From assembly GCA_965198225.1 (NCBI GenBank), contig CBDAOY010000007.1:192001-256000 (forward strand): a stretch of DNA of 64,000 nt, in the 5' to 3' direction. Positions within the stretch are counted from its first letter, which is position 1; each line of letters begins with the position of its first letter. The translations under genes were made by a program, and so were the position numbers. This DNA comes from Terriglobia bacterium (GTDB lineage: Bacteria > Acidobacteriota > Terriglobia > 20CM-2-55-15). Positions 20,898-50,853 of this stretch are shown piece after piece. The notes under the pieces are model-generated. The model ran no database searches. It was not told the origin of the DNA and saw only the letters and a program-made list of their open reading frames with translations.

Positions 20898-20952
20898 GAC
20901 CATGGTGTTACCTGGTATTCGGCGGGAAACTGTTCAGGAGATTGTTCAGTCG
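20898..20952 (+). repeat. Partial right arm of the att-like repeat (copy F)
   Basis: GACCATGGTGTTACCTGGTATTCGGCGGGAAACTGTTCAGGAGATTGTTCAGTC matches 22120-22172. Confidence 0.75.
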
Positions 20953-21081
20953 GGTGCGTCCTCCGTACTGGTTCCCTGCGTCTGGTTCAGTGGGCTGACT
21001 CTCCGGACCAAGGGGCTCGAAACCACTGCTACTGCCTCTCCTTGATCCCGGCATGCGCAGGCAGTAGGTGGATTCCGGGCT

Positions 21082-21381
21082 TCAGATTCGCGCCTTCCGA
21101 CGGGCCTCGCGCTCCCGGGCAATGCGTTCAGCCAGAAAGACCTTGAGAAGGGACTGATAGGGAACGTCCTGTTCGTTTGCCAGCGCCTTCAATTCCTCAA
21201 GCATCCCCGCGGGCAGCCGAACCGAAATTGTGGTCGTCGATGGCTTCAGTGCGGGAAACGAGCCCCGCACCGCCTTGTCCCAATCGAAGTAGTCGACAAC
21301 ATCGTGTTCGGCCCAAAACTTGCGTTCCCGATCCTCGGTTCGGAACCGAGGAGGCCTAGTTGTCCTTTTTCGGGCGCTCAT
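21082..21381 (-). CDS. brnA: BrnA/CopG-family antitoxin
   Basis: EDRERKFWAEHD, TISVRLP and DVPYQSLLK motifs; overlaps the toxin gene. Confidence 0.85.
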   Translation of the reverse strand: MSARKRTTRPPRFRTEDRERKFWAEHDVVDYFDWDKAVRGSFPALKPSTTTISVRLPAGMLEELKALANEQDVPYQSLLKVFLAERIAREREARRKARI

Positions 21382-21670
21382 ATATCTTCCGCTCTCGCCG
21401 GCTCATGTCCCGGGCCGATATGACCCGAACGAGTGTTTCCCGTATCGTGAAGACGACTGTCAGGAATCGGCCCTGCGTGGTCTGTCCGAGCGCCGCGTAT
21501 CGAAGTTCATCGCCGGTGCTCTTCGCAGGCGCCACCAGTACGGGCCGATTGAAGAAGAGTTGCTCGGCTTCGCTTTCGATAACGCCGTGCCGTTTCCGGT
21601 TCTTGCCCGAGTTCCCCGCGTCCCATTGGAAACCAACACAGCCTGCCAGTTCGTCCGGGAACTCGGGCAC
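21356..21670 (-). CDS. brnT: BrnT-family ribonuclease toxin
   Basis: GFQWDAGN...RHGV, LTVVFTIR and RVISARDMSRRE motifs. Confidence 0.9.
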   Translation of the reverse strand: MPEFPDELAGCVGFQWDAGNSGKNRKRHGVIESEAEQLFFNRPVLVAPAKSTGDELRYAALGQTTQGRFLTVVFTIRETLVRVISARDMSRRERKIYERPKKDN

Positions 21671-21676
21671 AAGTGG

Positions 21677-21705
21677 AGTATATCTCCAGCATATACGTGA
21701 GTCAA
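21677..21705 (-). promoter_or_regulatory. Sigma70 promoter of brnTA with overlapping palindromic operator
   Basis: TTGACT-N17-TATACT lies 6 nt before the GTG (likely leaderless); GTATAT/ATATAC inverted repeat. Confidence 0.65.
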
Positions 21706-21924
21706 GAATGCCGGCCGTATCGGTTCGACCTAGGTGCGAGAGCCCGACGACGGTGATCGGACCGACCGACAACTTGAGCGCACCTCAGGTGAGGATATCG
21801 TGGTGCTGGCGGTTCATCGTTCCCAGGCCGCGCGGAGATGGCAGGCTCGCACTTGAGAGCACATCTACTTGTCGTTCGGAATGGATCGATTCGGATAGCC
21901 CGCTTCAAACGTGCCGTTGTAAAA

Positions 21925-22194
21925 GGGCTGAGCGGGTCAAAGAGGTGGAGTGATCCCCGGCTTGAACACAGGCGGTCTCTGGGCTTGACGCCTTTCGATA
22001 AGTATAAGAAAATATAGCTACTTACCTGTGGGATCGTAGCTCAGTTGGAAGAGCGCCCGCTTCACACAACAACTCAAACACGTTATCTTGTTGGTTCTTC
22101 GTGTCTCTTGGCTGGGTACGACCATGGTATTACCTGGTATTCGGCGTGAAATTGTTCAGTAAATTGTTCAGTTGCGACGAAGGTTGCGAAACGA
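21925..22194 (+). repeat. att-like repeat copy A (promoter + tRNA-Val 5' half + right arm)
   Basis: TTGACG-N17-GAAAAT; tRNA half at 22030-22067; CAACAA..TTGTTG; two AATTGTTCAGT. Confidence 0.9.
22030..22067 (+). pseudogene. tRNA-Val(CAC) 5' half only
   Basis: GGGATCG TA GCTC AGTTGGAA GAGC G CCCGC TT-CAC-AC comprises the acceptor 5' strand, D arm, anticodon 5' strand and loop. No 3' half follows. Confidence 0.85.
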
Positions 22195-22211
22195 TCCGCA
22201 GCTGCTTGTCC

Positions 22212-22240
22212 TTGATCCAGGCGTGCGGAGAGAGTAGATT
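22212..22240 (+). promoter_or_regulatory. Sigma70-like promoter of the DUF433/DUF5615 operon
   Basis: TTGATC-N17-TAGATT, 9 nt before ATG 22250. Confidence 0.5.
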
Positions 22241-22249
22241 CAAACTGAA

Positions 22250-22477
22250 ATGAGCTACCGGGACATCATCACCATCGAAGCCGGCAAACGGGGGGGGAAA
22301 CCCTGCGTTCGCGGCCTTCGCATCACGGTGTACGATGTTCTCGACTACCTCGCTTCCGGGATGACCGAATCAGAGATTCTTTCGGATTTCCCCGACCTCA
22401 ATGCAGATGACATCCGTGCGTGCCTCGAATTCGCGGCTGACCGCGAGCGCAAACTGGTCTCGCTTCCCCCCGAGTGA
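22250..22477 (+). CDS. DUF433 antitoxin-like protein
   Basis: GKRGGKPCVRGLRITVYDVL...ILSDFPDL..DDIRACLEFAA. Confidence 0.9.
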   Translation: MSYRDIITIEAGKRGGKPCVRGLRITVYDVLDYLASGMTESEILSDFPDLNADDIRACLEFAADRERKLVSLPPE

Positions 22478-22806
22478 AGCTTCTATTCGACGAAAACCTG
22501 AGTCCCAGGCTGGTCAAGGAACTGAAGGCCGACTTCCCGGATTCGGTACATGTTCGGGACATTGGTCTGGAGCGAGCGATGGACGAGGCCGTCTGGAACT
22601 ATGCGAGGGACAACGGATTGGTGATCGTCTCGAAAGACGCCGATTTCCGTCAACTCAGCTTCCTGTTTGGAAATCCTCCAAAGGTGATCTGGATCCAACG
22701 AGGGAATTGCTCGACTGCAGCTGTCCTATCGTTGTTTCGACAACGCATCTCAAACCTCCTCAAGTTCGGTCAGGAGGAAGATGGGGCATTCCTAGCGCTT
22801 CGGTAA
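22474..22806 (+). CDS. DUF5615 PIN-like toxin
   Basis: KLLFDENLS, IVSKDADF and PPKVIWI motifs; GTGA overlap with the DUF433 gene. Confidence 0.9.
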   Translation: MKLLFDENLSPRLVKELKADFPDSVHVRDIGLERAMDEAVWNYARDNGLVIVSKDADFRQLSFLFGNPPKVIWIQRGNCSTAAVLSLFRQRISNLLKFGQEEDGAFLALR

Positions 22807-22984
22807 CCTGAATCACTTCCCTCGGCGGCAACCGGATTCACCACACTCTTCTCAAGCGTCACTTGTCCGAGACGCGCGATTCATTGAACTGACAGTTTGA
22901 TTGCTTCCAACTCCTTCCTCTCGTACTATTTACGCAAGTTTTTCCTGGACATGGCGAGGGAACGCCTGCGAGGCAGCGCGACCT

Positions 22985-25693
22985 ATGGCTCTCACGGCAG
23001 GTACACGTCTGGGTCCATACGAAATCGGCGACCAACTCGGTGCCGGCGGCATGGGAGAGGTGTATCGCGCCACCGACACCCGTCTGGACCGCACGGTTGC
23101 CATCAAAGTCCTTCCTGAACACCTCGCCGACGAACCGCAACGCCGGGAACGCTTCGAGCGTGAAGCCAAAGCCGTCAGCAGCCTGAACCATCCGCACATC
23201 TGCACGCTCCACGACGTGGGTGAACAGGACGGGATTCACTACCTCGTCATGGAGTACGTGGAGGGCGACACACTCCAGCAGCGTTTGGAGAAAGGCCGAC
23301 TGCCGCTGGATCAGGCCCTCGAATACGCCATCCAGATCGCCGACGCGCTGGACAAGGCCCACCGGCAGGGTGTGGTGCATAGGGATTTGAAGCCCGGCAA
23401 CATCATGATCACGAAGTCGGCAGGTGTGAAGCTCCTCGACTTTGGGTTGGCAAAGCTCAAAGGCGATGCCGATCAAGTCTCGCCGCTCTCTCAGATGCCC
23501 ACCCAAGACCCTTCAGCGCCCCTGACAGCAGAAGGCACGATCCTCGGCACGCTCCAGTACATGGCTCCTGAACAACTGGAGGGCAAGGAAGCCGATGCCC
23601 GGACGGACATCTTCGCATTCGGTGCGGTCGTCTACGAGATGGTCACGGGGAAGAAGGCGTTCGAGGGGGCGAGTCAGGCGAGTTTGATTGCGGCCATCAT
23701 GGATCATGAGCCGCAAGCGATGGCTGAGCTTCAGACCATGACGCCATCGTCGCTGGATCACATCGTGACGACATGCCTCGATAAAGATCCCGATATGCGG
23801 TGGCAGACGGCAGCCGACTTGATGCGCGAGTTGAAGTGGATAGAGGATGGAAACGCACAGGTCGGAACCGCTTCTATCGAAATTCCCTCAAAGAAACGCG
23901 AGCGTGTCGCGTGGTCCGCGAGCCTCGTTCTCCTACTTTCGACCCTTGGAGTCGCCTCCGTTGCGTTTTTCGGTAACGCACCACAGGAGCAGACGACATT
24001 CCGATTCTCTTTCGCCCATCCTTCGGAGGCTCGTGGAGACGTACTGACCGTCTCACCCGATGGCCAACGCCTTGCGTTTCTCGCGTCAAGCTCGACCGGT
24101 GCTCAAGCGGTGTGGGTCCGCGATTTCGAGTCCGGTGAGATGCGGATGCTGGCGGGTTCCGAGAATGCCACCGGATCTTTGTTCTGGTCGCCTGATGGAC
24201 AGGCCATCGGATTCTTCACTGTGACCGAGCTCAAGGCGGTGGATCTTTCTGGCGGTTCTCCTCGGACGGTGTCGCCCCAAGTCGCAAACAGGGGCGGCAC
24301 ATGGAACAAGGACGGGGAGATCATTTTGTCCCTAGGAGGAACGCTACAGCGCGTGTCGGCGGAGGGTGGCCAACCCACGCCGCTGGAGTTGTCGGGCGGG
24401 TTCCCGTACTTCCTGCCCGATGGGATTCATTTCCTTTATGAGTCCAGCTCTGGTCGCGGCCAGTCACTCGGACCTGGGCGACGCCAACTTGAGCCGTCTT
24501 CGATTTACGTGGCGTCTCTGGAATCCTCAGAAACGCGCCTTCTGTTGATTGCCGACCGCGATACCAAGGCTGCGTACGCGAGCGGGCATGTCCTGTTCGT
24601 GAGCGGGGGCGTGTTGATGGCGCAACCGTTTGACGTCGATAGCCTCCAGCTCAGGGGAGAAGCCCACCGAATCGGTCCCCAGGTGTCTTCTCCAGGGGTG
24701 GGGCACGGGGATGACATCCCGTTTTCGGTTTCGACCAACGGTATTCTCGCGTTTCGGTCCGGGAACCGCGTGGATGGACAACTCGTGTGGTTCGATCGTG
24801 AAGGAAACGAAACCCGACGGGTTCCTCAGCCACAGTCAGGCGAGTATCTGAACCCGTCCCTGTCCCCGAGCGGGCAACAGATCGCGGTGAACCGCAAGGA
24901 CCCGGCGACCGGGAATGTCGATATTTGGCTCATCGATATGGGAACGGATACACCGGATCCGCTCACCTCAACGGCATCGTTCGATGCCGACCCGGTCTGG
25001 TCACCCGACAGCCAGGAAATCGCCTTTTCGTCCTACCGGAACGGGAAGTGGGGCCTCTGGAAGAAGAATATCCGCACGGGCGAGGAAGAGCGTCTCTGGG
25101 AGGCTGCCGAGGGATCCGAGCCGAGAACCATGGACTGGTCGCCGGACGGAGAGTTCATTCTCTTCGACCTTCGAAGTCCAAACTCCGACCTCTTCGACCT
25201 TCGAGGTTCAAACTCCGACGTTTGGGTGTTGCCCGTTTCCGGGGATGATCCATGGCCGCTCCTGAACAATCCGAATATCTTCGAGTACGCCGCCCACTTT
25301 TCTCCAGACGGTGAGTGGGTCGCATACATCTCGAGTGAGGCCGGCGCGTTTAGCATCTACGTGGCGCGGTTCCCGGAGGGCACCGAGGGAGGACGGGTCT
25401 CGCTCGCTGGAAGTACTCATCCAAGGTGGAGGGGCGACAGAAGGGAGCTGTTCTACAAGGGCGGTTTTGGGAGCGCCCCGGTGATGGCGGTCCGTGTAGA
25501 GGCTGGCTCCTCGGGCCTTCAATTTGATAACCCAGTACCGGTTTTTGATTCGGTAATGTTAGGGATGTCGGACGGTCGGCACCACTATGCTGTGACTGCC
25601 GATGGAAACCGTTTTCTGCTGAGACGACCGAGCCTGGCCCCCCCACCTGTCACCGTCATCGTCAACTGGACTGCTGAACTGGAAAACCAATGA
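22985..25693 (+). CDS. Hanks-type Ser/Thr kinase + TM + TolB-like (PD40) beta-propeller
   Basis: [24 protein letters not shown] and YMAPE; TM segment; repeated (W/F)SPDG motifs. Confidence 0.92.
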
Positions 25694-25893
25694 ACCCCGG
25701 CACCCAACTCGGCAGCTACGAGATCCTCTCCCCGCTCGGCAAAGGCGGCATGGGATCGGTGTGGCTGGCGCGGGATGCGAAGTTGGGCCGGCAGGTGGCG
25801 ATCAAGACCCTGCCTGAAGAGTTCGCCAGAGACGCCGACCGTCTCGCCCGGTTTGAGCGTGAAGCCAAACTCCTCGCGTCGCTGAATCACCCA
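25690..25893 (+). pseudogene. Ser/Thr kinase N-terminal fragment
   Basis: [12 protein letters not shown]...GKGGMG...[12 protein letters not shown], after which homology is abruptly lost. Confidence 0.85.
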
Positions 25894-26026
25894 AAGCGGA
25901 TAAGCGATATAAGCAGGGGCTGACGACTATGGCAGCGCTGACAGTGCCGTCGTATAGGTCTTATGTAAATCCGCGGGCGGCCGCAGGCCGTCGCGCGAAA
26001 ATCCACTCACCCGCTCGCGCGGGAGA

Positions 26027-27280
26027 TCAAGCCAGGAGGGCTTTGACCCCGGCCACAGCGCGCGCGACGTGCTCCATCGTGTTGTAGACGTGGGGGCAAA
26101 GCCGGATGCCGCCCGTGCCGGCACCTGCAATCCCGTGCTCTTCATACAGACGGTTCAAGACTTCGCGGCTCTTCCCTCGCTCGAGTTCGACGATGCACAC
26201 GCCGCCCGAGAGCTTCTCGTCCTCGGGGGTCACGAGCGTGCGACCCGCATCGACGAGCCCGGCTTTGAGCGCCGTGGCGAGCTCCGTCATGCGTGCTTCC
26301 ATCTGAGCCGCGCCTATGGCGTTATGGAAATCCACCGTCGTGCCGATGGCCGCGAGACACGCGTCGTCACGCTGGCCGAGCGATTCGAATTTGCGGGCGC
26401 CTTTCGGATCGGGGTCGACGTCATCGCCCCATCCCGGCGCGACAACGTTCGGCCAAATACGCGCTATGTTTGACGCTTTCACATAGAGGATCCCCGCTTC
26501 TTTCGGCCCCATGAACCACTTGTGCGCCGAAGCAGAATAGGAGTCGCAGCCGATGTCGCGGAGATTCACATCGAGCGCCCCCCAGCTCTGCGCGCCGTCG
26601 ACGTGCACGTAAACGCCTTTTTCGTGCGCTGCCTCGACGATTTGTTTCGCGGGGAGCTTGATGCCGCTCACGTTCGAGACATGCGTAATCGAGAGAACCT
26701 TTGTCTCGTCCGAGAGTGCTTCGATGAAGGTGTCCACGAGCTCCTGGGAGCTCTTCGGGTGCTTCGGCGTCGAAACGCGTCTCACGGTAAGCCCGAAGCG
26801 CGCCGCCCTCACGTCCCAGGCAACGTTGTTCGTCGGGTGATTCTGGCTCCATAGCACGACCTCATCGCCCTCTTCGAGGTCGAGGCCGTTATTGATCATG
26901 TTGTTGGCCTCGCTCGTATTGCGCACGAGGGCGATCTCGTCAGCGGTGACGCCGAGCTGCTTCGCGACCTTCTTCCGTGACTCCTCACGGAGTCCACCGA
27001 ATTTTCCTCGATTGTTGAACGAGCAGTCGCGGTCGATATCCGCAGTCAACTCCGAGACCCGCTCCGCGACGGCGCGTGAAGACGGACACAAGTTGGCGGC
27101 GTTCATCGGCACTCTTTCCTCGCTGAAAGAAAACTGGGCGCGCACGAGATGCCAGTAGGCTTCGCCCTCGACCGACGTTTCCGCGAGCGCCGACGCCTCG
27201 GCCTCATTGGATTTGAGGGCGATGGGTAGAAGTGCCGCCGAGGCGGCGAATTCTTTGAGAAAGGACCGGCGAGAGTTCAT
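26027..27280 (-). CDS. Tat-signal class V PLP-dependent aminotransferase (isopenicillin N epimerase/cysteine desulfurase-like)
   Basis: SRRSFLK signal; RNTSEA, HVDGAQ and SAHKWFMGPK (PLP lysine). Confidence 0.88.
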   Translation of the reverse strand: MNSRRSFLKEFAASAALLPIALKSNEAEASALAETSVEGEAYWHLVRAQFSFSEERVPMNAANLCPSSRAVAERVSELTADIDRDCSFNNRGKFGGLREESRKKVAKQLGVTADEIALVRNTSEANNMINNGLDLEEGDEVVLWSQNHPTNNVAWDVRAARFGLTVRRVSTPKHPKSSQELVDTFIEALSDETKVLSITHVSNVSGIKLPAKQIVEAAHEKGVYVHVDGAQSWGALDVNLRDIGCDSYSASAHKWFMGPKEAGILYVKASNIARIWPNVVAPGWGDDVDPDPKGARKFESLGQRDDACLAAIGTTVDFHNAIGAAQMEARMTELATALKAGLVDAGRTLVTPEDEKLSGGVCIVELERGKSREVLNRLYEEHGIAGAGTGGIRLCPHVYNTMEHVARAVAGVKALLA

Positions 27281-27419
27281 GGAGCCTCCTTCGATCAGAC
27301 CAGTAGCGATCGTAGCCAGGATGATACCGCATTTGTCACGCCGGCTGATCTGCCGTGCTGGTTCCCGCGAGTTTTGAAAACGCGATCAGTAGTGCAACCT
27401 CAGAGGCTGGGGACACTCG

Positions 27420-27949
27420 TTTCTCAGACGAGATGGTGTCGACGACATATGCATCACCGGAGACTGATAAACAGGAGCCCTTCGCTTCGGCACCTGGTTC
27501 ACGCCAAGCGGGAGCGTCGTTCTCGCCTAGCGGAGAGTGGCTCGCCTACCATTCGCAAGAACTAAGGTTCAACGAACTGTACGTCCAGGCGTTTCCGTCA
27601 AATGGCACTCAGCACGCCCACTTTGGAAGAGCTGCCGACCTATCCGATCTGGTCGCAGGACGGTCGTCAGCTTATTTTTCGACCTTCGGCCATTTTGGGA
27701 AGGAGTTTGTTGACCGTTATCGATGTCACGACAGACCGTGGCGTTCCAGAATTCGGGCCTCCCGAGGGGCTTCCCGTGCAGGACTTCCTTACGTTCCCGT
27801 TTTTTCGGAGCTACGACATTCTTCCCGATGGGCAGAGATTCGTCGTCGTCATGCCCGAAGAAGCAGGCGACGGCGGACCGAGGTCCTCACGGATCAATGT
27901 CTGTCAGAACTGGACCGAAGAACTGAAGGAACTCGTGCCGGTTCCATGA
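27420..27949 (+). pseudogene. C-terminal propeller fragment of a kinase gene (frameshifted)
   Basis: FSPSGEWLAY, PIWSQDGRQL and YDILPDGQRF; ends NWTEELKELVPVP like the neighbouring kinases. Confidence 0.8.
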
Positions 27950-28074
27950 CCTCCTGTCACCCGAGTCCGCAACTCTGGAGAGCTCCGGGAAGCGATTGTT
28001 CAGTTTTGTTCAGTCGAGCGAGGCATCGGGTTCGCCCGCGCACGCCCGAACCAGTCGTCGTCAACGGGTTGAAC
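27950..28074 (+). repeat. Left arm of the att-like repeat (copy G), truncated
   Basis: CGATTGTTCAGTTTTGTTCAGTCGAGCGAGGCATCG matches 32776-32811 and 43224-43259. Confidence 0.8.
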
Positions 28075-28105
28075 TGAACCGCCCCGGGAATCCCGGGGCG
28101 GTTCA
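28075..28105. mobile_element. 31-bp palindrome resembling two fused IS3-family (IS629/IS6110-type) ends
   Basis: TGAACCGCCCCGGG-AAT-CCCGGGGCGGTTCA; TGAACCGCCCCGG is the terminal motif of IS629/IS6110. Confidence 0.55.
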
Positions 28106-28183
28106 CTTTCACCCTTCGTTCCTATTGAGAGTCGGGTTGACTACCACTACGAGACGACGAGAGGATGGAGCCCAGGAGACACC

Positions 28184-28825
28184 TCAGCCCTCGTCGTCAT
28201 CGTCATCATCGTCGTCATCATCATCATCGTCATCATCGAAGCCGAGGATCGCATATCCTGACAGAGGTGCGAATGGGACAGTTGGATCACCAGTGAATCC
28301 CCCTGCCATGATCGAGTACAGACCTTCCAAGCCATCCTCTCCGTCAGAGAGCATGAACGAGCACGCCGCTCTAACCGAGGGTGTCGAGGCATTTTCGAAG
28401 ATAACGCAGTCACCACTGAAATCGGACTGACCTGGCGCTGAGTCTAGTACCGTGCCCGTGAAAGTGCCACGCCCTTGATACGTACCGGCACCGCCGGGGA
28501 ATGGTCCGGAAATGATCACCAACTGTTCCAGCTCTAATTGTCCGCTAATGTCTCCTGCAATCTCCCAAGTGGCAACTGTGTGTATGACGGTGTCTCCATG
28601 TTCAGTGATCATAGAACTTACGACGGTGCCTCCCAGGGGCCGAGCCTGCGCGCTCACGGGACTCAGTGGTGTGATCGCTGGGTCATCCGAGGCTCTGACC
28701 GTCGTCAAGCTTGCGAGCAGCACGATCGACGCTATTACTGCCATGCAAGGTATTGGCAGACGTTTTGTGATTAGAGGTTGAGGAGAAGCCAGGTTCATCG
28801 GTTTGGTTTTCTTTGCTTGTAGCAT
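28184..28825 (-). CDS. Secreted beta-rich hypothetical protein with poly-Asp tail
   Basis: RBS AAGGAGG, hydrophobic signal, and C-terminus GF-D14-EG; divergent from the ECF sigma gene. Confidence 0.65.
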   Translation of the reverse strand: MLQAKKTKPMNLASPQPLITKRLPIPCMAVIASIVLLASLTTVRASDDPAITPLSPVSAQARPLGGTVVSSMITEHGDTVIHTVATWEIAGDISGQLELEQLVIISGPFPGGAGTYQGRGTFTGTVLDSAPGQSDFSGDCVIFENASTPSVRAACSFMLSDGEDGLEGLYSIMAGGFTGDPTVPFAPLSGYAILGFDDDDDDDDDDDDDDDEG

Positions 28826-29233
28826 TGATCCCTCCTTCAGGAACCATGAAAGTTCAGACGTTGCGCTAGTGCTAGTCTTCGCGGCCCTCACCGATTAAGG
28901 CGGGAATTGTGATGGAAAACTCCAACGGGATCAGAGAAATCTCTGGAAATCGCCCGAGAGTGGGAGGGGCAATTTTGGTGCCAGCTAACCGAAGCGTTAC
29001 TTCATTGAAACGGAAGACGATGTGATTGGCTTCTTACCAACCCTTCCAAGGACCAATCTACGGATTTTCTATGTCCATTTCCGTTGATGAAGCTTCGGAC
29101 ATCGGTTGACTTTTGATCTTCTCTGACCCGCTGGCGCTTGATACCTGGCTCCTCTCAAGCAACGTTTCCTGTAATGTCCTGAAGCTGTGTGCTAACTTGA
29201 GGTTACATTCAGACCGACGGTGCAAACGCTCAC

Positions 29234-33095: not shown

Positions 33096-33283
33096 GGCCT
33101 TAAAGCAGGGTCATTCTTATTCGCGGCAACCGGACTCACCGCACTCGTCTCAAGGCGCCATTTGTCCGATACGCCAGTTTCACCTACCCGACACTTTGAT
33201 TGCTTCCAACTCCCACCTTTCGTAGTATTTACGCAAGTTTTTCCTGATCATGGCGAGGGAACGCCTGCGAGGCAGCGCGGCCT

Positions 33284-36082: not shown

Positions 36083-36084
36083 CG

Positions 36085-36117
36085 ATGATTCCCGGCACCC
36101 AACTCGGCAGCTACGAA
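36085..36117 (+). pseudogene. 11-codon remnant of a kinase start ([11 protein letters not shown])
   Basis: CCCGGCACCCAACTCGGCAGCTACGA is identical to the start of the 25690 fragment. Confidence 0.7.
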
Positions 36118-36161
36118 CCCACTTTTCCCCGAGTACGATTCGCGTGCAGCAGGAGGAATCC

Positions 36162-37781: not shown

Positions 37782-37825
37782 CACGACAGGTCCTTCGGAA
37801 AATAAGGGGGTTGGACACGGAGAAA

Positions 37826-43182: not shown

Positions 43183-43546
43183 TCTTCTTGTCTGAGTCCG
43201 AAATTCTTCTACGTTCCGCGAAGCGGTTGTTCAATTTTGTTCAGTCGAGAGAGGCATCGAACTCGCCCGCCCACCCCCGAGCGTGTCGTTATGAGCGGGC
43301 TGAGCGGGTCAGAGATGTAGAGTGACCTCCAGTTTGAACACAGGCGCTCATCGGACTTGACGTCTTTCGATAAGTATAAGAAAATATAGCTACTTACGAG
43401 AGGGATCGTAGCTCAGTTGGAAGAGCGCCTGCTTCACACAACAACTCATTTATAGCAATCTTGTTGGTTCTTCTTGTCCCTAGTTCGCTTCAGACGACGG
43501 TGTTAGCCGGTATTGCCCGGAAAATTGGTCAGTAAATTGTTCAGTC
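43183..43546 (+). repeat. Full att-like repeat copy C
   Basis: Left arm TTGTTCAATTTTGTTCAG; TTGACG promoter; tRNA half at 43402-43439; right arm. Confidence 0.9.
43402..43439 (+). pseudogene. tRNA-Val(CAC) 5' half only
   Basis: GGGATCGTAGCTCAGTTGGAAGAGCGCCTGC TT-CAC-AC. Confidence 0.85.
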
Positions 43547-43629
43547 GGTTGGCAGACGCCACCGACCCCAGTCACGACGTTGACCGGGTGCCTCTCTCCC
43601 TCTGACGGCGAAGAACCCGATTTGTCTTC

Positions 43630-43646
43630 TGCACCACTGTGGTGCA
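43630..43646. promoter_or_regulatory. Perfect palindromic operator upstream of the small gene pair
   Basis: TGCACCAC-T-GTGGTGCA overlapping a CATACT -10-like box. Confidence 0.6.
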
Positions 43647-43656
43647 TACTGGTGCC

Positions 43657-43914
43657 ATGCCGACCAAAGTGAAAACCATCCGCCAAAGCGTAACCCTTCC
43701 CGTCAAGGTTGCCAGCCAGGTGCGCGCGATGGCCAAGCGCCGCAAACTGAGCGCCAGCCGCATGCTCGTCGAGTTGCTTGAAGAAGGGATCGAGTCTCGG
43801 AAGGCCAAGGAGAAGGCCTTTTTCGAGCTCGCTGAACGTTTCCGCCAGGCAGAAAATCCCGGCGAAGCGGCGCGCCTTGGCGAGGAACTGGGCAAGATGG
43901 TCTTTGGGAAGTAA
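43657..43914 (+). CDS. Ribbon-helix-helix (CopG-like) putative antitoxin
   Basis: RQSVTLP beta strand followed by helices (SASRMLVELLEEG). Confidence 0.7.
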   Translation: MPTKVKTIRQSVTLPVKVASQVRAMAKRRKLSASRMLVELLEEGIESRKAKEKAFFELAERFRQAENPGEAARLGEELGKMVFGK

Positions 43915-44159
43915 TGCCCAAGATTGCTGGATGGACTGAATTCCCCTCGGCGATTCGGGAGCATCTGGTTGAGAGAATGCGCGGCCGCTGGATAACGCTA
44001 GAGGACCTGAATCGGCTTCGGTTATGGGTCGAGTCTGATCCTGACGTGCCCGAGGACACGTCGTACAAGGATTTCGGATCTTTCAAGATATGCGGGGAGG
44101 GCCGATATCCGAAAACGTTTCTACTTGCCGCTCAACCTGCAAAGGGAACCGAGGTTTGA
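43914..44159 (+). CDS. Small hypothetical protein, putative toxin
   Basis: 81 aa, translationally coupled (TAATG) to the RHH gene; no family recognised. Confidence 0.6.
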   Translation: MPKIAGWTEFPSAIREHLVERMRGRWITLEDLNRLRLWVESDPDVPEDTSYKDFGSFKICGEGRYPKTFLLAAQPAKGTEV

Positions 44160-44232
44160 GCCTGTCCTGCAAATCCCTACGTCAAACGACTGTCCGCGGG
44201 ACTCGAGTTTGACCTGAAAATATAACGATCGC

Positions 44233-44480
44233 GGAATGATCTCCTGTGTAGAATACAGGCGGTCATTGGACTTGACGCCTTTCGATAAGTATAAGAAAAT
44301 ATAGCTACTTATCTGAGGGATCGTAGCTCAGTCGGAAGAGCGCCTGCTTCACACAACAACCCAGACACGTTATCTTGTTGGTTCTTCTTGTCTCTAGTTC
44401 TTATCAGGCGACGGTATTAGCTGGTATTCGGCAGGAAATTGTTCAGTGAATTGTTCAGTCGCGACGAAGGCCCGAAACGA
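44233..44480 (+). repeat. att-like repeat copy D
   Basis: Promoter with GATAAGTA..TACTTATC inverted repeat; tRNA half at 44317-44354; right arm; shares the GCGACGAAGG..CGAAACGA extension with copy A. Confidence 0.9.
44317..44354 (+). pseudogene. tRNA-Val(CAC) 5' half only
   Basis: GGGATCGTAGCTCAGTCGGAAGAGCGCCTGC TT-CAC-AC. Confidence 0.85.
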
Positions 44481-44575
44481 ACTGCATCATAGGACTATCT
44501 GTAGCCGGTCAGAGCATTTCGGGCCGAATTCACTGAAAACAAAGATGCGCTCTTCTGATCGGAGCGTTCGAAAAA

Positions 44576-45805
44576 TTAATGATGTTCGAAGGCTGATGCC
44601 ACGCGGTCGATTTGACCAGCACTAAGGCCCAGGCCTGCGGCAGCTTCCCGCCATTTCTCCACTGCGCTTTCGACTTTGGTAACTACGCTACGCGCCTCGT
44701 CGGGCGTGAGTTCGAAATACTCGGCAACGCTCATCGCCAAATCGACCGACGCTGTACCGTCATCAAGATCGATCGCTGTCGTCAGGATGCGTGGCTTGAT
44801 GTCCACAGGCACGGGATTGAGATCATATGCCGGCGCCAGTCGCCATCCATCCGGGCCTTCATAGAGAAAGCCGTGATTGCGCAGGTGGTCGTCCGTGTTG
44901 GAAATCAGGACACTGAAAATGATACGCCGCCACAGGGCGTGCATGTCTTCTTTTGGAGCTGCCCCGTGTTGACGCAATGCATCCACAAAGTCGAGATAGC
45001 TGCGCGCCTCGTTGTCGACAGCACCCAGCATGCTCATGGCTGACAGGAAGGGGATGCGCATGCCGTCGACGCGATCGAAGCGGCGCAAGAGAAGCACGGG
45101 CTTACCAGCAACATCTTCCAGTCGCCATTCCGGTACCGAAAGGCCGGCATTTGCCGCCAGCGTCAACGCGACCGCTTCCCATCTCACCGTTTCGATTTCA
45201 TCATCTCGGTGCGGAAACTTGGCAATCGCCAGCGTCCCGTCCCTGTCCCGAACGGAAGCCTTGGGGCGAGCACCGCCCAATGAGGAGCCAGGCGCGAGCA
45301 ACAACCGTAGATCCTCATCGCTGTCAGAATCACCGGCCACGCGGTCGGCAGCGGAGAGCAGCCTTGGCAGATCAATCAGTGGCGGAATTGGCATAGTGTC
45401 ATGTGCGGTATGGAATGGCCCACCTTCCGTGGTCGCAAATCGCAATGCGCTTTGCCGCGCCTCGTCATTGACCATCAGCAGGTAGTCGATTTCCATCAAT
45501 GTGCGTGGCGTCTCGCCGGCGCCCTCGGCACGACGGCGTTCGGCCCGGCGCATGAGCACACGGCCCCAGCGGTCGGGAGCGGAATCGCCGATTGCGCCAA
45601 ATAGAGGTTTGTCTCCTGACGTGTGATACGGGCCGGGCCCCAGCGTCAAGGCTGGTTCCAGGGAGAAGCGGTCTTTATACTCAAGCCATGTTTCGTCGTA
45701 CTCAAATGTGGCGCTTTGACGGTTCTTGCGCGTGCGCGTCCACAGCCGTCCGGTGAGGCACGGAACGCCATCGACATCAACATAGACAAGAACCTCGGTA
45801 TCCAT
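44576..45805 (-). CDS. hipA: HipA-family toxin kinase
   Basis: DSAPDRWG, GSSLGGARPK, RRFDR, NTDDHLRNH and LAPAYDLNP motifs. Confidence 0.92.
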   Translation of the reverse strand: MDTEVLVYVDVDGVPCLTGRLWTRTRKNRQSATFEYDETWLEYKDRFSLEPALTLGPGPYHTSGDKPLFGAIGDSAPDRWGRVLMRRAERRRAEGAGETPRTLMEIDYLLMVNDEARQSALRFATTEGGPFHTAHDTMPIPPLIDLPRLLSAADRVAGDSDSDEDLRLLLAPGSSLGGARPKASVRDRDGTLAIAKFPHRDDEIETVRWEAVALTLAANAGLSVPEWRLEDVAGKPVLLLRRFDRVDGMRIPFLSAMSMLGAVDNEARSYLDFVDALRQHGAAPKEDMHALWRRIIFSVLISNTDDHLRNHGFLYEGPDGWRLAPAYDLNPVPVDIKPRILTTAIDLDDGTASVDLAMSVAEYFELTPDEARSVVTKVESAVEKWREAAAGLGLSAGQIDRVASAFEHH

Positions 45806-45810
45806 TGTTC

Positions 45811-46179
45811 TTACTCTTTTCCTTCTATCCGGTCAGGCTGAATCGATTTGCGCTGGCCCGATTTCCGAATACGTTTGGGCAACCGCTCCTCTTCCAATTC
45901 AAGTCCGACGGTATCGCTCTTCACATCTGCCAGGAGGCTGAGCCTTTCGGCCATACCCAATACGAAAAGTACGGTGGCATAGCTACCCATCGAGACGCCC
46001 GGCTGTCCCTTTTCCACCTTGCTTAGCGTCGTCCGGCTGATTGACGCCCTTTCGGCCATGACCGTCGTCGGAATTCGTCGCCGCAGTCTTGCGTCACGGA
46101 TATCCGCACCAAGCTTACGTAAGGCTCGCCTGATCGGGATCGGGATCGCTGAAGTTGATCGTTCCATAGATTTTCTCAT
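45811..46179 (-). CDS. XRE HTH antitoxin (HipB-like)
   Basis: LGADIRDARLRRR..MAERASISRTTLSKVEKG; directly upstream of hipA. Confidence 0.85.
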   Translation of the reverse strand: MRKSMERSTSAIPIPIRRALRKLGADIRDARLRRRIPTTVMAERASISRTTLSKVEKGQPGVSMGSYATVLFVLGMAERLSLLADVKSDTVGLELEEERLPKRIRKSGQRKSIQPDRIEGKE

Positions 46180-46456
46180 TTATTGTTTATTTTATTAGTC
46201 ATTATAATGCGTACCGTACAATATAGTAGACATTATATCAAGCTATCCCTTCACCACGGCCTTCGGCAAGTTCAACTATCAATTGTCTATAAAAATAACC
46301 CGTATCTCATATAACGTCTATTATTCTAACCTTAAACTGACATAATGGAATATGCCAACACGATATGGAGTCAATTCCAACCGTCCTATCGAGCGCTACC
46401 GGGCGGCATAGCATCGTCCGCAAATCACATCTGCAAGGTTCACGGCCAGCCCGATA

Positions 46457-46495
46457 TTGACAATGTCAGATAATAAATATAATATATATGACATT
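46457..46495 (+). promoter_or_regulatory. Sigma70 promoter with overlapping inverted-repeat operator
   Basis: TTGACA at 46457 followed by an AT-rich TATAATAT -10 region; AATGTCA...TGACATT inverted repeat. Confidence 0.65.
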
Positions 46496-46505
46496 TGAGA
46501 GCGAA

Positions 46506-47075
46506 ATGAGCGACGGCCCACACAGAAGTCTGAATATGCGGCGGGGCTGGAAACAGCTTGCGGAGCGCGCGGATAAGAAAGCTTTCGCGCCCCAAGAGAT
46601 ATGCGATGCGATTCCCATGGCGCTGGAACAAGACTGGCGTGCTGAAGTTCCGCGGCGTCTTCTCCGACAGGTTCGAGCGACATTGGAAGACGACCAAAGC
46701 TCGTTCTTCGAAGACCAGAGACCAAAAACGCTCGAAGTGCTAAGGGGCAATACGGCCGGCAGTTCCCTCGCCACAATGTTTCTGGACTGTGCCATTCAGG
46801 AAGCAGCAGGCGGCAAAGCGGGTGATCAAGTTACGCGAGACGCCGTGCGCGGTGCACTTATGGATCGTACGGCTCGCGGCATACGTCAGGTTGAAGAACA
46901 TTACTACCGTGAATCCACGCAGAACCGCGCCATGAACGTGAGAGAGAGATTGGAGAGCGGTGTCGCGCAAACCAACATTCCGGCGATCGTTGACCGCGTT
47001 ACCGGAACCGACAAGTCCGCATCGCCACGAATGCCTGTAAAGCAGACTGGCCTTGATGACGGGGTGCAGTTGTAA
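46506..47075 (+). CDS. Helical hypothetical protein, first gene of the QueC-like operon
   Basis: ORF MSDGPHRSL..., TAATG-coupled to the next gene. Confidence 0.7.
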   Translation: MSDGPHRSLNMRRGWKQLAERADKKAFAPQEICDAIPMALEQDWRAEVPRRLLRQVRATLEDDQSSFFEDQRPKTLEVLRGNTAGSSLATMFLDCAIQEAAGGKAGDQVTRDAVRGALMDRTARGIRQVEEHYYRESTQNRAMNVRERLESGVAQTNIPAIVDRVTGTDKSASPRMPVKQTGLDDGVQL

Positions 47076-48478
47076 TGGACAATACGAAAGCCGCTGACAT
47101 TCAACTCCCTTCGATCCGCGTTGACGTTGTCGAGCCGGGTACACGACCACGCCGGAACTGGATCAAATGCGCGATCAATGAGAACCTGGAATTCAAAACG
47201 GAGGGTTTGGAATCCTACTGTTTCGCGGAATGGGAATCGCTCGTATACGACGCGTTCCTCATTGCTGCTGCGGTCCAGTTCTGTGATCACGCCAAAGCCC
47301 GGCCAGCAACCGGCTGGGGTAGAGACATCGCCTTGCGTGTTCCGGTTCATGACCCTGTCCATTGGAGCGGAGCTGATGTCTCGGGAACGCTGCATACGGC
47401 GCTGAAGTTCCTCACCGGAGATCAGTGGAACATTTCCTTCACTGGCAGGAAAACACCGGAACCGCCACCTCGACAAGGTCAGTTCAGGATGCCTGATGGT
47501 TCGCGCGTGATCATCCCGTTCAGCGACGGAATCGACTCCCTCACCGTCGCCGGATTAATGAAGCGCGAATACGGCAGCCGCCTAATCCAGGTAAGACTGA
47601 GCTCGCAATCTTTGAAACGCACGCCACCTGGAACACTGCGTTTCCCCTTCGCCTTAGTTCCCTACAAAGTGCGCGCCGGCAAAACACGGTTCGTTGAAAC
47701 GAGTGCGCGGTCACGCGGTTTTAGGTTCGCGCTCCTAAGCGGTATAGCGGCTTACCTTTCGCAGACCGAAACGATAGTCGTGTCGGAAAGTGGCCAGGGG
47801 GCACTGGGACCAACGCTCGTCCCGGTGGGACAAGCCTACGAGGACTACAGAAATCACCCTTTGTTCACGGTGAAGATGGAGGCGTTTATTCTAGCCCTGC
47901 TTGGGCATCAGGTTCGCTATATATTCCCGCGCCTCTGGCACACGAAGGGCGAGACATTGGCCGAATACGTCGCCAAGTGCCCCGATTGCCCAGACTGGGA
48001 AGAAACGCGCTCGTGCTGGCAATTGCAGAGACAGGTATCTGTTGCCGGCCGGATGCGCCAATGCGGCATTTGCGCCGCATGCATGCTCAGACGCATGAGT
48101 ATTCATGCCATCGGCGCAACCGAGAAACATGACACCTATGTCTGGGAAGATCTAACCGCCGCCCGTTTCGAAGATGGTGCTACAGCTCTCTTCGGAAATA
48201 CAGAGCCGAAAGGCGCACTGCATGAGTATGCGATTGCCGGCACCCTCCATCTTGATCATCTCGCCGACCTGCGGCGCTCACCACAAGGCGGCGTAACGAT
48301 CGATCGATCGGCGTTCCAACTGAGCCGAAGTCTCGAAGAATCCCAGACGGAGATTGAGTCACGTCTGAATCGATTGCTTAAACACCATGAGGAGGAATGG
48401 AAGAGCTTCGTCCGTTCTTTGGGACCAAACTCTTTCGTCGCCGGCTGGGCCAGAGGCGCAGAACAACATGTCACTTGA
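47075..48478 (+). CDS. QueC-like PP-loop ATPase (QatC/Cap9-like rather than housekeeping QueC)
   Basis: FSDGIDS PP-loop, TKGE, SCW and CGICAACMLRR Zn site; 467 aa with a long N-terminal extension. Confidence 0.82.
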   Translation: MDNTKAADIQLPSIRVDVVEPGTRPRRNWIKCAINENLEFKTEGLESYCFAEWESLVYDAFLIAAAVQFCDHAKARPATGWGRDIALRVPVHDPVHWSGADVSGTLHTALKFLTGDQWNISFTGRKTPEPPPRQGQFRMPDGSRVIIPFSDGIDSLTVAGLMKREYGSRLIQVRLSSQSLKRTPPGTLRFPFALVPYKVRAGKTRFVETSARSRGFRFALLSGIAAYLSQTETIVVSESGQGALGPTLVPVGQAYEDYRNHPLFTVKMEAFILALLGHQVRYIFPRLWHTKGETLAEYVAKCPDCPDWEETRSCWQLQRQVSVAGRMRQCGICAACMLRRMSIHAIGATEKHDTYVWEDLTAARFEDGATALFGNTEPKGALHEYAIAGTLHLDHLADLRRSPQGGVTIDRSAFQLSRSLEESQTEIESRLNRLLKHHEEEWKSFVRSLGPNSFVAGWARGAEQHVT

Positions 48479-49646
48479 TGAACTAGATTCGATCGACGTA
48501 GGCGAGCGCTTGCGGGTTGCCCGTGAGGCGGCAGGCATTACGCAGGCTGATGCTGCGACAGATATCAATGTCGCGCGGACGACTCTTATCGCAATCGAAA
48601 AGGGACAGCGTCGTTTCCGGATCGGCGAGTTGCAACGACTAGCCCGCCTGTACAACATGTCGGTGAACGCCCTGCTGCGCCGCGAGTCCATCCATGTTGA
48701 TCTGACCCCTCGTTTCAGAAAACTCCAGAAAAGCGGTGAGGAAGCGTCGAGCGCGGCTGCACAACTTCTGACCAATTTGGCAAAGGCTGAAGTTGAACTT
48801 GAAGATCTGCTCGGTATAAAGCGTACGCGCAACTATCCATCCGAGCGTCCGCTTTTACCAGGTGATGTCAGAGCGCAGGCCGAAGGCGATGCATTGGAAC
48901 TCCGGCATTGGTTCGGTCTTGGGATTAGTCCGGTCCGTGATCTCGTGACGTTGCTCGAATTGGAGCTTGGCGTGCGCGTCTACATAAGGAAGCTGGATGG
49001 GCGAATATCGGGGCTATTCGCGTATGACGAAAGGCTCGGCGCATGCATGCTTCTTAATGCCAATCATCCACCTGGTCGAAGGGCGCAGACTGCTGCGCAC
49101 GAACTCGGTCATTTCATCTCGACGCGCAAGACACCGGAAGTCTTACATGTGGACGAAGTAGTTTCGTCCCGCGAAGAGCGTTACGCGAAGACGTTCGGGC
49201 GCAATTTCCTGACTCCTGCAAGGGCGGTCATGCAAAGATTTCAGGAAGTTACTGCAGGATCACCTCGACTTACGCGACGGCACGTCATCGTGCTGGCCCA
49301 TGCATTTGGTGTCGCCCGAGAAGCCATTGTCAGGCGTCTTGAGGAACTTGGCATAGCCAAGGCTGGCACATGGGACTGGTTCCAGGCGAATGGCGGCATC
49401 ACCGACGATCAGGCACGCCACGTCCTCGGAGATCCGATTCATGCAGACACCGGCAAGGCTGATGCGGACCGGCCGGCAACTCTCAGACTCAATATATTGA
49501 CCGCAGAGGCATGGCGTCAGGGCCTACTCAGTGAAGGGCAACTGGCAAATCTTCTGCAAATCGATCGTATCGAGCTGCGTGAACTCTTGGACGATGCAGA
49601 CATCGAAGGGGGCGTGGCAGATGGTATGCCCAAGCTGCTTGACTGA
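48468..49646 (+). CDS. XRE HTH fused to ImmA/IrrE metallopeptidase
   Basis: N-terminal HTH (GERLRVAREAAGITQ) and AHELGH HExxH motif. Confidence 0.9.
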   Translation: MSLDELDSIDVGERLRVAREAAGITQADAATDINVARTTLIAIEKGQRRFRIGELQRLARLYNMSVNALLRRESIHVDLTPRFRKLQKSGEEASSAAAQLLTNLAKAEVELEDLLGIKRTRNYPSERPLLPGDVRAQAEGDALELRHWFGLGISPVRDLVTLLELELGVRVYIRKLDGRISGLFAYDERLGACMLLNANHPPGRRAQTAAHELGHFISTRKTPEVLHVDEVVSSREERYAKTFGRNFLTPARAVMQRFQEVTAGSPRLTRRHVIVLAHAFGVAREAIVRRLEELGIAKAGTWDWFQANGGITDDQARHVLGDPIHADTGKADADRPATLRLNILTAEAWRQGLLSEGQLANLLQIDRIELRELLDDADIEGGVADGMPKLLD

Positions 49647-50244
49647 CCCCTCGGATCTCGTCGTTGCCGATGCGAGTGTAGTCATAAACCTGAACGCGAC
49701 CGGCCGTTCCGCCGCTGTTCTTGACGCATTCCCCAATCGTATGGTGATAGTTCAGGAGGTCTCATTTGAAATAAAGAACGGCCGCCACAATGCGATCAAT
49801 GATGCTGCTGAGCTTTCTACCCTGGCTTCTAGCAATAGGATAGAGATTGTTCAGCTCGGCAAACTTGGATTGCATCATTTCGAGGACCTCATAGCGGGAA
49901 CGACGGCAAACACGCTTGATGATGGCGAGGCGGCGACGATCGCCTATGCTATTGAACAGAGCGCGACCGCCCTAATCGACGAACGAAAAGCAAACCGGAT
50001 CTGCGGTGAAAGGTTTCCGGATCTGCGGACTGGATCCACTGTCGATTTACTCTGTCACCGAGCAATCATAGAGAGCCTCGGGAACGAAATACTCAGCGAT
50101 GCCGTGTTCAACGCTCTTTATCATGGCCGCATGAGGGTCCTACCGCATCATGCGAAATGGGTGGTGAACCTTATAGGCGCGGACCGCGCTGCAAAGTGTC
50201 ACAGCATCCCAACAGCGCTTCGGCGAATCTCTTCATCCCCATAG
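49621..50244 (+). CDS. PIN-domain protein
   Basis: VVADASVVINL, LDDGEAATI and LIDERKA motifs. Confidence 0.82.
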   Translation: MVCPSCLTDPSDLVVADASVVINLNATGRSAAVLDAFPNRMVIVQEVSFEIKNGRHNAINDAAELSTLASSNRIEIVQLGKLGLHHFEDLIAGTTANTLDDGEAATIAYAIEQSATALIDERKANRICGERFPDLRTGSTVDLLCHRAIIESLGNEILSDAVFNALYHGRMRVLPHHAKWVVNLIGADRAAKCHSIPTALRRISSSP

Positions 50245-50264
50245 AACGGCGCTGCACACGAGCG

Positions 50265-50460
50265 ATGGCGGGTGCCGCCAAAGCGACCCGGGCACGCAGC
50301 GCGCTCGCCGGTGCAAACACACCGAAATACCGGGTCAGGTGTGCGCGAGGCTTCGGTACCAGCGCGGCGAGCCGGGCGGTAAAATCCATGGGCTCGAAGA
50401 TCACGTGCGTGGTGCCGTCGCGACAGGCGGTCCTCAACGTATAGCGAACATGCCCCGACC
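50265..50460 (-). mobile_element. IS91/ISCR-family transposase C-terminal fragment
   Basis: DGTTHVIFEPMDFTARLAALVPKPRAHLTRYFGVFAP. Confidence 0.85.
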
Positions 50461-50534
50461 CCGACCCTCGACGAAAACACCGGCCCGAATGTCCAACGTC
50501 AATCAAAATTCCTTCTCGAAAATAATTGACGCTA

Positions 50535-50747
50535 AACACGCTGCATTGGGTAGCGCGGCGCGGGCGTGCTGAAGCCGTGACGGTGCTGTTGGCGGCGGGT
50601 GCGAATCTGGAAGCGCGAAGCGGAGGTTGCCTCACCCCGCTGCATTGGGCAGCGGCGATTGGGACTGCTGTAGCCGTAGCGGAGTTGCTAGAGGCGGGTG
50701 CGGACCCGAAGGCGCGGGACAACGATGGCAGACTGCCTGTCGACTAC
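50535..50747 (+). pseudogene. Ankyrin-repeat gene fragment truncated by the att right arm
   Basis: TLHWVA..., TPLHWAA...LLEAGADPKARDNDGRLPVDY, then the repeat sequence begins. Confidence 0.8.
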
Positions 50748-50853
50748 AACAACCCAAACACGTTATCTTGTTGGTTCTTCTTGTCTCTAGTTCTTATCAG
50801 GCGACGGTATTAGCTGGTATTCGGCAAGAAATTGTTCAGTACATTGTTCAGTC
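50748..50853 (+). repeat. Right arm only of the att-like repeat (copy E)
   Basis: Near-identical to 44355-44460. Confidence 0.9.

Follow-up and report, generated by a model that had tools for sequence, protein, structure and literature searches.

The window analysed here, 64,000 nt from an acidobacterium of the Terriglobia (G000:C7:192001-256000, where C7 is contig CBDAOY010000007.1), holds most of a 47-kb array in which 5' halves of a tRNA-Val gene alternate with the arms of putative recombination sites. The array was very probably formed by integrative elements that accreted, through site-specific recombination by a tyrosine integrase, on the 5' side of the sole tRNA-Val(CAC) gene of the genome, and its best explanation is a graveyard of older elements together with one live candidate. 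Positions are those of the window; beyond its end they carry the prefix w and correspond to the C7 coordinate minus 192000. The G+C content is undistinguished, ranging from 0.52 to 0.69 along the window against 0.60 for the genome.

Anatomy of the junctions

A 28-nt core of the tRNA-Val 5' half, searched with up to three mismatches, matches the window at exactly four places (22030, 32952, 43402 and 44317), all on the forward strand, and at none in 100 shuffled sequences. All four halves comprise tRNA positions 1-38, ending on the last base of the anticodon loop, and all four continue into AACAAC. Promoter-like sites of the form TTGACG-N17-GAAAAT were called ahead of the last two halves at 43357-43385 and 44272-44300, and direct reading of the sequence adds another at 21985-22013 and a TTGACG-N17-GATACT site at 32908-32936. 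An earlier note on this DNA, made from the sequence alone, had described four co-oriented halves at these positions, each with a promoter before it, AACAAC after it and an end at the last anticodon-loop base, and each of these statements holds at every junction.

Alignment of the four full junctions defines a conserved unit that extends from about 85-120 nt before the half, promoter included, to the second TTGTTCAGT about 105 nt after it. The right (P') arm, about 105 nt long, holds CAACAA-N16-TTGTTG, a pair of GGTRTT boxes at a spacing of 10 nt and a pair of TTGTTCAGT 9-mers at a spacing of 12 nt. In the left (P) arm, a pair of 9-mers with 10-nt spacing lies about 95-175 nt ahead of the half and is followed by the promoter. 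Right-arm pairs of TTGTTCAGT occur at six places (20930, 22152, 33074, 43525, 44439 and 50832; shuffle mean 0.02). The more closely spaced left-arm pairs lie at 27996, 32779 and 43227, where the earlier note had placed them, with 10-nt phasing. Of 17 copies of TTGTTCAGT on the forward strand of C7, 16 fall within w20898-67700, and there are 42 in the genome on both strands. Besides the four full junctions, three orphan arms are present in the array, two of them right and one left. The earlier note had listed both orphan right arms, and that at 50748 is indeed a full arm, whereas that at 20898 is just the final 53 nt of one. From half to half and on to the last arm, the spacings are 10,922, 10,450, 915 and 6,431 bp. 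The components are, from left to right:

20898-20950, forward strand: orphan P' arm cut down to its last 53 nt, the TTGTTCAG pair degenerate; matches the 3' ends of right arms A and B at 88-91% identity
21910-22029, forward strand: P-arm remnant A with promoter TTGACG(21985)-N17-GAAAAT(22013), without the TTGTTCAG pair, its left part gone
22030-22067, forward strand: tRNA-Val 5' half A, positions 1-38, one base off the intact gene
22068-22172, forward strand: P' arm A, with AACAAC..TTGTTGGTTCTT, GGTATTACCTGGTATT and TTGTTCAGTAAATTGTTCAGT
27908-28072: orphan truncated P arm within unit A-to-B, pair at 27996
32677-32951, forward strand: P arm B, with a kinase 3' end, the pair TTGTTCAGTTCTGTTCAGT at 32779 and promoter TTGACG(32908)-N17-GATACT(32936)
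32952-32989, forward strand: tRNA-Val 5' half B, anticodon TAC, two bases off the intact gene
32990-33094, forward strand: P' arm B
43125-43401, forward strand: P arm C, with a kinase 3' end, the pair TTGTTCAATTTTGTTCAGT at 43227 and promoter 43357-43385
43402-43439, forward strand: tRNA-Val 5' half C, identical to the intact gene
43440-43545, forward strand: P' arm C, one mismatch in the first 9-mer
44233-44316, forward strand: P-arm remnant D with promoter 44272-44300, without the TTGTTCAG pair
44317-44354, forward strand: tRNA-Val 5' half D, one base off the intact gene
44355-44459, forward strand: P' arm D, 95.5% identical to the orphan arm at 50748
50748-50852, forward strand: complete P' arm without a tRNA half, its boundary exactly at AACAAC, joined to an ankyrin-like frame

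The truncated P' arm at 20898-20950 is the leftmost trace of the array and begins 3 nt past the stop codon of an alpha/beta-hydrolase open reading frame (ORF; 19897-20895). Junction A (21910-22172) aligns to 43282-43545 at 81%. Half B, despite its TAC anticodon, is unlike the real tRNA-Val(TAC) gene of the genome. ARAGORN finds no complete tRNA in the window, and Rfam at gathering scores has no match there.

The junction copies are 77-96% alike and none are identical; assembly collapse, about which the earlier note had been concerned, or duplication is therefore unlikely. Logan contigs covering w32001-52000 break at the repeats and contain no in-register joint from core to core; the joints listed lie in paralogous kinase genes and measure 20-35 nt on the short side. 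The joint at the orphan P' arm is spanned by a contig of run X4 (49370-50787), X4 being possibly the source sample and so not independent.

The intact tRNA-Val(CAC) and its integrase

The earlier note had predicted an intact tRNA-Val at the downstream end of the array and a tyrosine integrase nearby, and both are there. The intact tRNA-Val(CAC), found by ARAGORN 3.7 kb past the end of the window, gives the fifth match to the half in the genome, the only one besides the four in the array, and is single-copy among the 52 tRNAs of the genome. The four 5' fragments all lie upstream of it and are co-oriented with it, and apart from the intact gene itself no tRNA-Val(CAC) 3' fragment occurs in the genome. 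The integrase ORF ends 43 nt upstream of the tRNA gene and reads towards it. Both belong to the last unit of the array:

w50748-67836: integrase-bearing unit, 17 kb, including the P' arm at 50748; leaves the window at 64000
w66484-67719, same strand as tRNA-Val: tyrosine integrase, 411 aa, PF00589 at 75.8 bits
w67666: pair TTGTTCAGTATTGTTCAGT in the last codons of the integrase gene
w67763-67836 (C7:259763-259836): intact tRNA-Val(CAC)

Besides PF00589, the protein has the phage-integrase SAM-like N-terminal and central domains. The catalytic R, K, R, H and Y positions are conserved in an alignment with 11 homologues, and throughout the nearest integrase sub-clade Leu replaces the first His of the HxxR box. 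The stop codon overlaps a TTGAGA hexamer that we read as the probable -35 box of the tRNA-Val promoter.

The last codons of the integrase (ELFSIVQF) are written as GAATTGTTCAGTATTGTTCAGT, which is the left-arm pair. The same pair is DNA-identical in five outside loci, all at tRNA-Asn genes (L019, L045, L046, L074 and L085), which come from other genomes or metagenome contigs and whose integrase matches are 53-61% identical, that of L085 being only a 46-residue C-terminal piece. It is DNA-identical also in a 63%-identical partial integrase paralogue on contig C5 of the same genome. Identity of the DNA against about 55% identity of the proteins suggests a second role as arm-type binding sites, and the TTGTTCAGT pairs of the array are accordingly named here as putative arm-type sites of the integrase.

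Polarity of the integrase relative to the tRNA

In all, 34 integrase loci were examined, the present one and 33 others (29 from 400 genomes of the class and four from genome_contigs), with an additional 16 from metagenome contigs. A tRNA gene lies 34-254 nt past the integrase 3' end in 30 of the 33 other loci, on the opposite strand in every case, and three loci have no tRNA; one of the 30, L058, is from the unpublished genome G089, and leaving it out gives 29 of 32. The tRNAs are those for Asn, Ala, Lys, Thr, Arg, Pro and Asp as well as Val-GAC. Such a tRNA is also present at seven of the 16 metagenome loci, again on the opposite strand (7/7). The opposite-strand tRNA is the classical arrangement, in which the element supplies the 3' part of the tRNA. 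As all 37 homologous loci with a tRNA next to the 3' end of the integrase show it, and the present locus alone among those examined has a full-length integrase and tRNA on the same strand, the present lineage has flipped its polarity. A 50-residue C-terminal integrase tail stands directly before a tRNA-Val match in G016, on the same strand, which indicates that the reversed type existed in another genus of the family.

Two further reversed-polarity islands are present in the same genome outside the window. At G000:C8:644347-673248, a 5' fragment of tRNA-Lys(ttt) (positions 2-40) lies 29 kb upstream of the gene, which has a PF00589 gene just upstream on the same strand, and at G000:C8:1098888-1113834 a 5' fragment of tRNA-Gln(ctg) (positions 1-44) lies 15 kb upstream of the gene, with an integrase tail immediately before it.

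On the other side of tRNA-Val(CAC), about 200 nt downstream and on the opposite strand, we note a second tyrosine integrase, a 168-aa catalytic-domain fragment beside an insertion sequence (IS) transposase (w68036-69711; G000:C7:260036-261711; L024 4036-5711). Genome G001 has a 49%-identical integrase at the equivalent position. The fragment is what remains of a classical 3'-side island, so that one and the same tRNA-Val is used from both sides.

Related junctions in other genomes

The earlier note had suggested looking for the junction unit in the genome and in relatives. Screening of 39 relatives besides the host genome identifies the half-plus-P' junction in four of them, other genera included, with unrelated cargo: G015, which has two about 1 kb apart, G021, G016 and G006. 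The halves in these genomes also end at position 38. Those of G016 and G006 carry 4-5 changes and have a broken P' arm in common, showing that old relics do decay. The half in G021 is preceded by sequence unlike the P arms, which by eye resembles the region before the intact tRNA-Val in G014 and suggests that the G021 half may be a native attL (left attachment site). A second right-arm family (TTATGCACG...) follows a tRNA-Val half cut at the same position 38 at two loci, L008 (G015:C41:894618) and L015 (G003:C1:2913130); in G015 this arm is followed by a 7-kb unit filled with IS elements, then a left-arm pair and then an intact tRNA-Val.

A scenario for tandem accretion

The favoured scenario starts from an element attachment site (attP) made of a P arm with direct TTGTTCAGT 9-mers and a sigma-70-type promoter, then tRNA positions 1-38, and then a P' arm with CAACAA..TTGTTG, two GGTRTT boxes and two TTGTTCAGT 9-mers. 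The resident integrase would have made the junctions by crossing over in, or at the 3' edge of, the anticodon loop. Integration would swap the promoter and front half of the tRNA gene for the element's own copy, and the displaced promoter and half would be pushed upstream and fused to the P' arm of the newcomer, such that repeated rounds would leave P-core-P' junctions between units and one intact tRNA downstream. In the presumed order of events the newest unit, w50748-67836, would be a decayed element resembling an integrative and conjugative element (ICE) or an integrative and mobilisable element (IME), with a full-length integrase and coupling-protein and VirB11-like genes, and riddled with IS elements. 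The older units would be remnants like cis-mobilisable elements (CIMEs), which have lost the integrase, are partly deleted and carry kinase and extracytoplasmic function (ECF) sigma factor, toxin-antitoxin and defence-like cargo. The junction anatomy and the downstream tRNA thus support the view of the earlier note that these are attP-like junctions, each with a P arm, a core and a P' arm, of elements that carry their own promoter and 5' half and are stacked in tandem.

The orphan P' arm at 50748 can be accommodated as a probable product of recombination with a pseudo-site. Of the 38 nt on its left, 19 agree with the tRNA half, a score equalled by just 0.14% of 2,000,000 random genomic 38-mers (p ~0.0014), and an arm that starts exactly at the core/P' boundary beside a half-like left flank is what recombination at a pseudo-site would be expected to leave.

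Several observations weigh against accretion by repeated integration. In units A-to-B, B-to-C and C-to-D, which have half-plus-arm junctions at their borders, neither an integrase nor a conjugation gene was found; for units A to D there is no PF00589 hit within the window, and tblastn with the resident integrase finds no remnant at E<=0.01, so that these units are only presumed to have arrived as self-integrating elements. At three P arms the adjoining sequence is a homologous kinase 3' end, and one integrase-less module may equally have multiplied, in that case at least three times, by integration in trans or by unequal crossing-over. No native attL with the original promoter survives in the host genome. 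To the right of the anticodon loop, attP has AACAAC and the tRNA (attB) has GCAGG, so that the tRNA's own stem does not serve as the right-hand core site. No empty site was found in three genomes of the same genus, where the flanks are scattered and 70-86% identical, because synteny is poor. Lastly, no full-length integrase orthologue was found beside tRNA-Val elsewhere in genome_contigs (5 loci), the 400 class genomes or the metagenome contigs (16 loci).

Alternative explanations

The array could instead be a working cassette platform, from which integrase-less units are excised and re-inserted in trans by the resident integrase and in which displaced tRNA promoters drive the cargo, as Pc does in an integron; we regard this as unlikely. 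In its favour, both arms are kept at junctions B and C, where no 9-mer has more than one mismatch against a divergence of 22-26% in the flanks; G015, which is of another genus, has two left arms of the integrase-less type (TTGTTCAGTTTTG.TCAG); and a cognate integrase is present in the same array. Promoters A and B moreover read into co-directional genes, unit B being a 10-kb run of four forward-strand genes. However, junctions A and D are without a left-arm pair, two arms, a P and a P', are truncated, the C-to-D unit has no gene, and the first genes of unit D face the promoter. A kinase gene conservedly adjoining P' was not found in the relatives, and units of 0.9-10.9 kb with several genes on both strands are unlike integron cassettes. 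The broader proposal that the integrase-less units are cassettes shuffled through P-core-P' junctions with the displaced promoter built in, and that together with the two further 5'-side islands they make up a widespread gene-capture system, is likewise doubtful.

Somewhat less probable still is segmental duplication in situ, with one attL-type junction and its neighbouring kinase copied by unequal homologous recombination and no repeated integration. It would account for the five paralogous kinases in the array, the first and third of which are 88% identical over their first ~880 nt and the upstream region, and for the near-likeness of the A, C and D promoters. The pattern of divergence speaks otherwise. 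Pairwise differences amount to 10 of 228 positions (4.4%) in the halves, but to 130 of 643 (20%) in the P' arms and 120 of 529 (23%) in the P/promoter sides; the pairwise comparisons are not independent and Fisher p-values are overstated, but the five-fold contrast stands. With the flanks on either side about five times more diverged than the halves, neutral drift after local duplication does not fit, whereas the independent arrival of diverged elements, each with a half under selection to give a functional tRNA, does. The junctions also differ in type (left arm present or absent, and cargo), other genera have the same junction beside unrelated cargo, and the boundary of the orphan P' arm is exactly at the core.

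That the promoter-plus-half units are small-RNA genes, either tRNA-half-like regulators or split-tRNA halves, is very improbable: promoter-like sites do precede near-perfect halves and an invariant 6-bp stem (CAACAA/TTGTTG) follows them, but neither a 3' half nor a complementary partner exists in the genome, folding of the consensus is weak (-13.15 kcal/mol over 147 columns, with compensatory change in 2 of 35 pairs), no terminator-like site was found, Rfam has no match, and the conserved blocks are phased by about one helical turn, as protein-binding sites are.

Relationship to known systems

The described process closest to accretion at tRNA-Val(CAC) is the tandem accretion of decayed, integrase-less CIME-like elements. 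In the streptococcal ICESt1/ICESt3 family, as described in PMC5704250, a newcomer integrates beside a decayed CIME that lacks an integrase. Common to these and to the present array are a regenerated att site beside a decayed element lacking integrase and transfer genes, and chimeric att sites between units. The known cases differ in lying at gene 3' ends and in that cis-mobilisation was demonstrated, whereas here the array is on the 5' side and known from sequence alone. Units A-to-B, B-to-C and C-to-D show two features of CIMEs: they are att-flanked and lack integration and transfer genes, and a co-resident element in tandem encodes an integrase (w66484-67719) whose gene shares the arm 9-mer pair.

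Table 1 of the Islander report gives 3919 islands, of which 3760 have a 3' fragment and 159 a 5' fragment; the report gives 125 arrays of at least two islands and four of at least three, with an integrase required per unit, and the table footnote names the anticodon loop, the T loop and the 3' end as crossover sublocations (PMC4383910). The Islander-type signature, a complete tRNA with co-oriented 5' fragments on the correct side, is present here, and the halves end at the anticodon-loop sublocation, at position 38. A tyrosine integrase lies inside the tRNA-proximal unit (411 aa), and none was found in units A to D. Islander 5'-fragment islands resemble the present locus in the tyrosine integrase, the anticodon-centred site, the 5' part supplied by the element and the displaced co-oriented 5' fragments upstream. 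They differ in that here at least five or six units are stacked, the integrase is in the last alone, and the host is an acidobacterium.

The ssrA arrays of Dehalococcoides comprise, in the account of PMC3146451, 15 islands without an integration module that were proposed as CIMEs. They too consist of many islands in tandem at an RNA gene that is present once, with direct repeats of a gene fragment as their boundaries. They differ from the present array in that the recombinase is of the serine type, the 3' repeat of the tmRNA gene measures 20 bp and the arrays lie downstream of that gene. In pelagiphages HTVC021P, 022P, 201P and 121P, attP overlaps the tRNA-Cys 5' end and the phage copy completes the gene (bioRxiv 10.1101/410191). 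That attP lies on a tRNA 5' end, with the element copy completing the gene, is shared with the present system, whereas the pelagiphages, as presented in that preprint, are lytic/temperate podoviruses with single integrations and no arrays.

Integrons, with which the earlier note had compared the array, share with it gene units in one orientation between recombination sites, one tyrosine recombinase and promoters reading into units. Here, however, there are no attC hairpins and no attI/Pc platform by the integrase, and the sites have lambda-type arms and are anchored at a tRNA. The junctions are direct repeats of ~250-400 bp with arm-type 9-mers and a weak consensus fold, unlike attC. Nor is there an integron head with its cassettes: the integrase is inside the 17-kb ICE/IME-like unit at the tRNA end, and the units, of 0.9-10.9 kb, have 0 to 6 genes on both strands and are partly truncated, so the description as an integron-like cassette array did not hold up. 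The integron analogy is at most a loose one, with mobilisation in trans possible; if integrase-less units do move in trans, the array would be a gene-capture platform parallel to integrons. Split tRNA genes of the Nanoarchaeum type have a separate 3' half gene and a leader complementary to the sequence after the 5' half. This candidate was rejected, as the genome contains no tRNA-Val(CAC) 3' fragment outside the intact gene.

As islands with 5' fragments, tandem arrays and units lacking an integrase have all been published before, the locus belongs to a known, rare class, to which it adds a deep stack in an acidobacterium, the presence of the cognate integrase and a documented polarity flip within an integrase clade. 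With an integrase, a regenerated tRNA, several P-core-P' junctions and a putative pseudo-site junction, it offers a complete, readable example of reversed-polarity tRNA integration, and all parts lie within 47 kb, so that core and arm sites are directly definable and testable. It also provides a natural case for how an att site flips polarity and gains a promoter, and the host's sole tRNA-Val(CAC) would now be reliant on a mobile-element promoter.

Gene content of the units

The genes between the junctions, with Pfam assignments where given, are as follows:

22173-32676: unit A-to-B cargo span, genes on both strands
22401-22811: small ORF, unit A-to-B
22901-25693, forward strand: Ser/Thr kinase with PD40 propeller (Pfam), unit A-to-B
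26027-27280, reverse strand: class-V aminotransferase (Pfam), unit A-to-B
29234-29818, forward strand: ECF sigma factor (Pfam), unit A-to-B
29751-32573, forward strand: second kinase (Pfam), unit A-to-B
33095-43124, all forward strand: unit B-to-C cargo, with kinase 33284-36082, amidase 36066-37781, kinase 37778-40528 and kinase 40525-43182
43546-44232: unique spacer in the 877-bp C-to-D unit
44460-50747: unit D cargo span
44576-45805, reverse strand: HipA, unit D
45811-46179, reverse strand: helix-turn-helix (HTH) protein, HipB-like, unit D
47075-48478: QueC-like protein of 467 aa, weak match, unit D
48387-49646: HTH plus ImmA/IrrE peptidase, unit D
50171-50722, reverse strand: Y2-transposase fragment, unit D
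cut off at 50747: ankyrin-like frame, unit D
within the window, reverse strand: ankyrin protein, integrase-bearing unit
within the window: ORC/CDC6-like protein and transposase-fusion ORF, integrase-bearing unit
59226-61466: TraG/TraD-like coupling protein, integrase-bearing unit
61463-62425: VirB11-like ATPase, integrase-bearing unit
from 62675: ankyrin protein, integrase-bearing unit
w64510-66075, beyond the window: IS transposase, integrase-bearing unit

Pfam annotates no gene in the spacer of the C-to-D unit, of which the rest of the genome and the relatives examined contain no homologue, and this 877-bp unit has no homology to the ~1-kb unit between the two halves of G015. HipA/HTH, the QueC-like protein and HTH-ImmA/IrrE are clustered at 44576-49646 and form a block of cargo of a defence or addiction-like kind. 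In the PD40-kinase genes, the final ~35 nt (..EELKERVPVP*; window 43150-43184) recur at 91-100% identity at dozens of loci in several genera; judged by these matches, the PD40-kinase family is very large and its 3' end is conserved at the DNA level.

Other repeated sequences

To the left of the array, short sequences at 5078-5364 and 9304-9379 of the window recur dozens of times in three genomes of the same genus, at 77-90% identity, and may be dispersed repeats or miniature elements. Elsewhere in the host genome, eight scattered 3' fragments of tRNA-Leu(gag) (positions 16/24-76), 85-100% identical, lie far from the gene on contigs C4, C5, C6 and C8 and may belong to a repeated element carrying a piece of tRNA-Leu. 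On C4, C6, C7 and C9 there are also nine places with an identical PF00589 score (152 bits, E 5.0e-44), mostly open frames of 313 aa, which look like a multi-copy element with a tyrosine recombinase.

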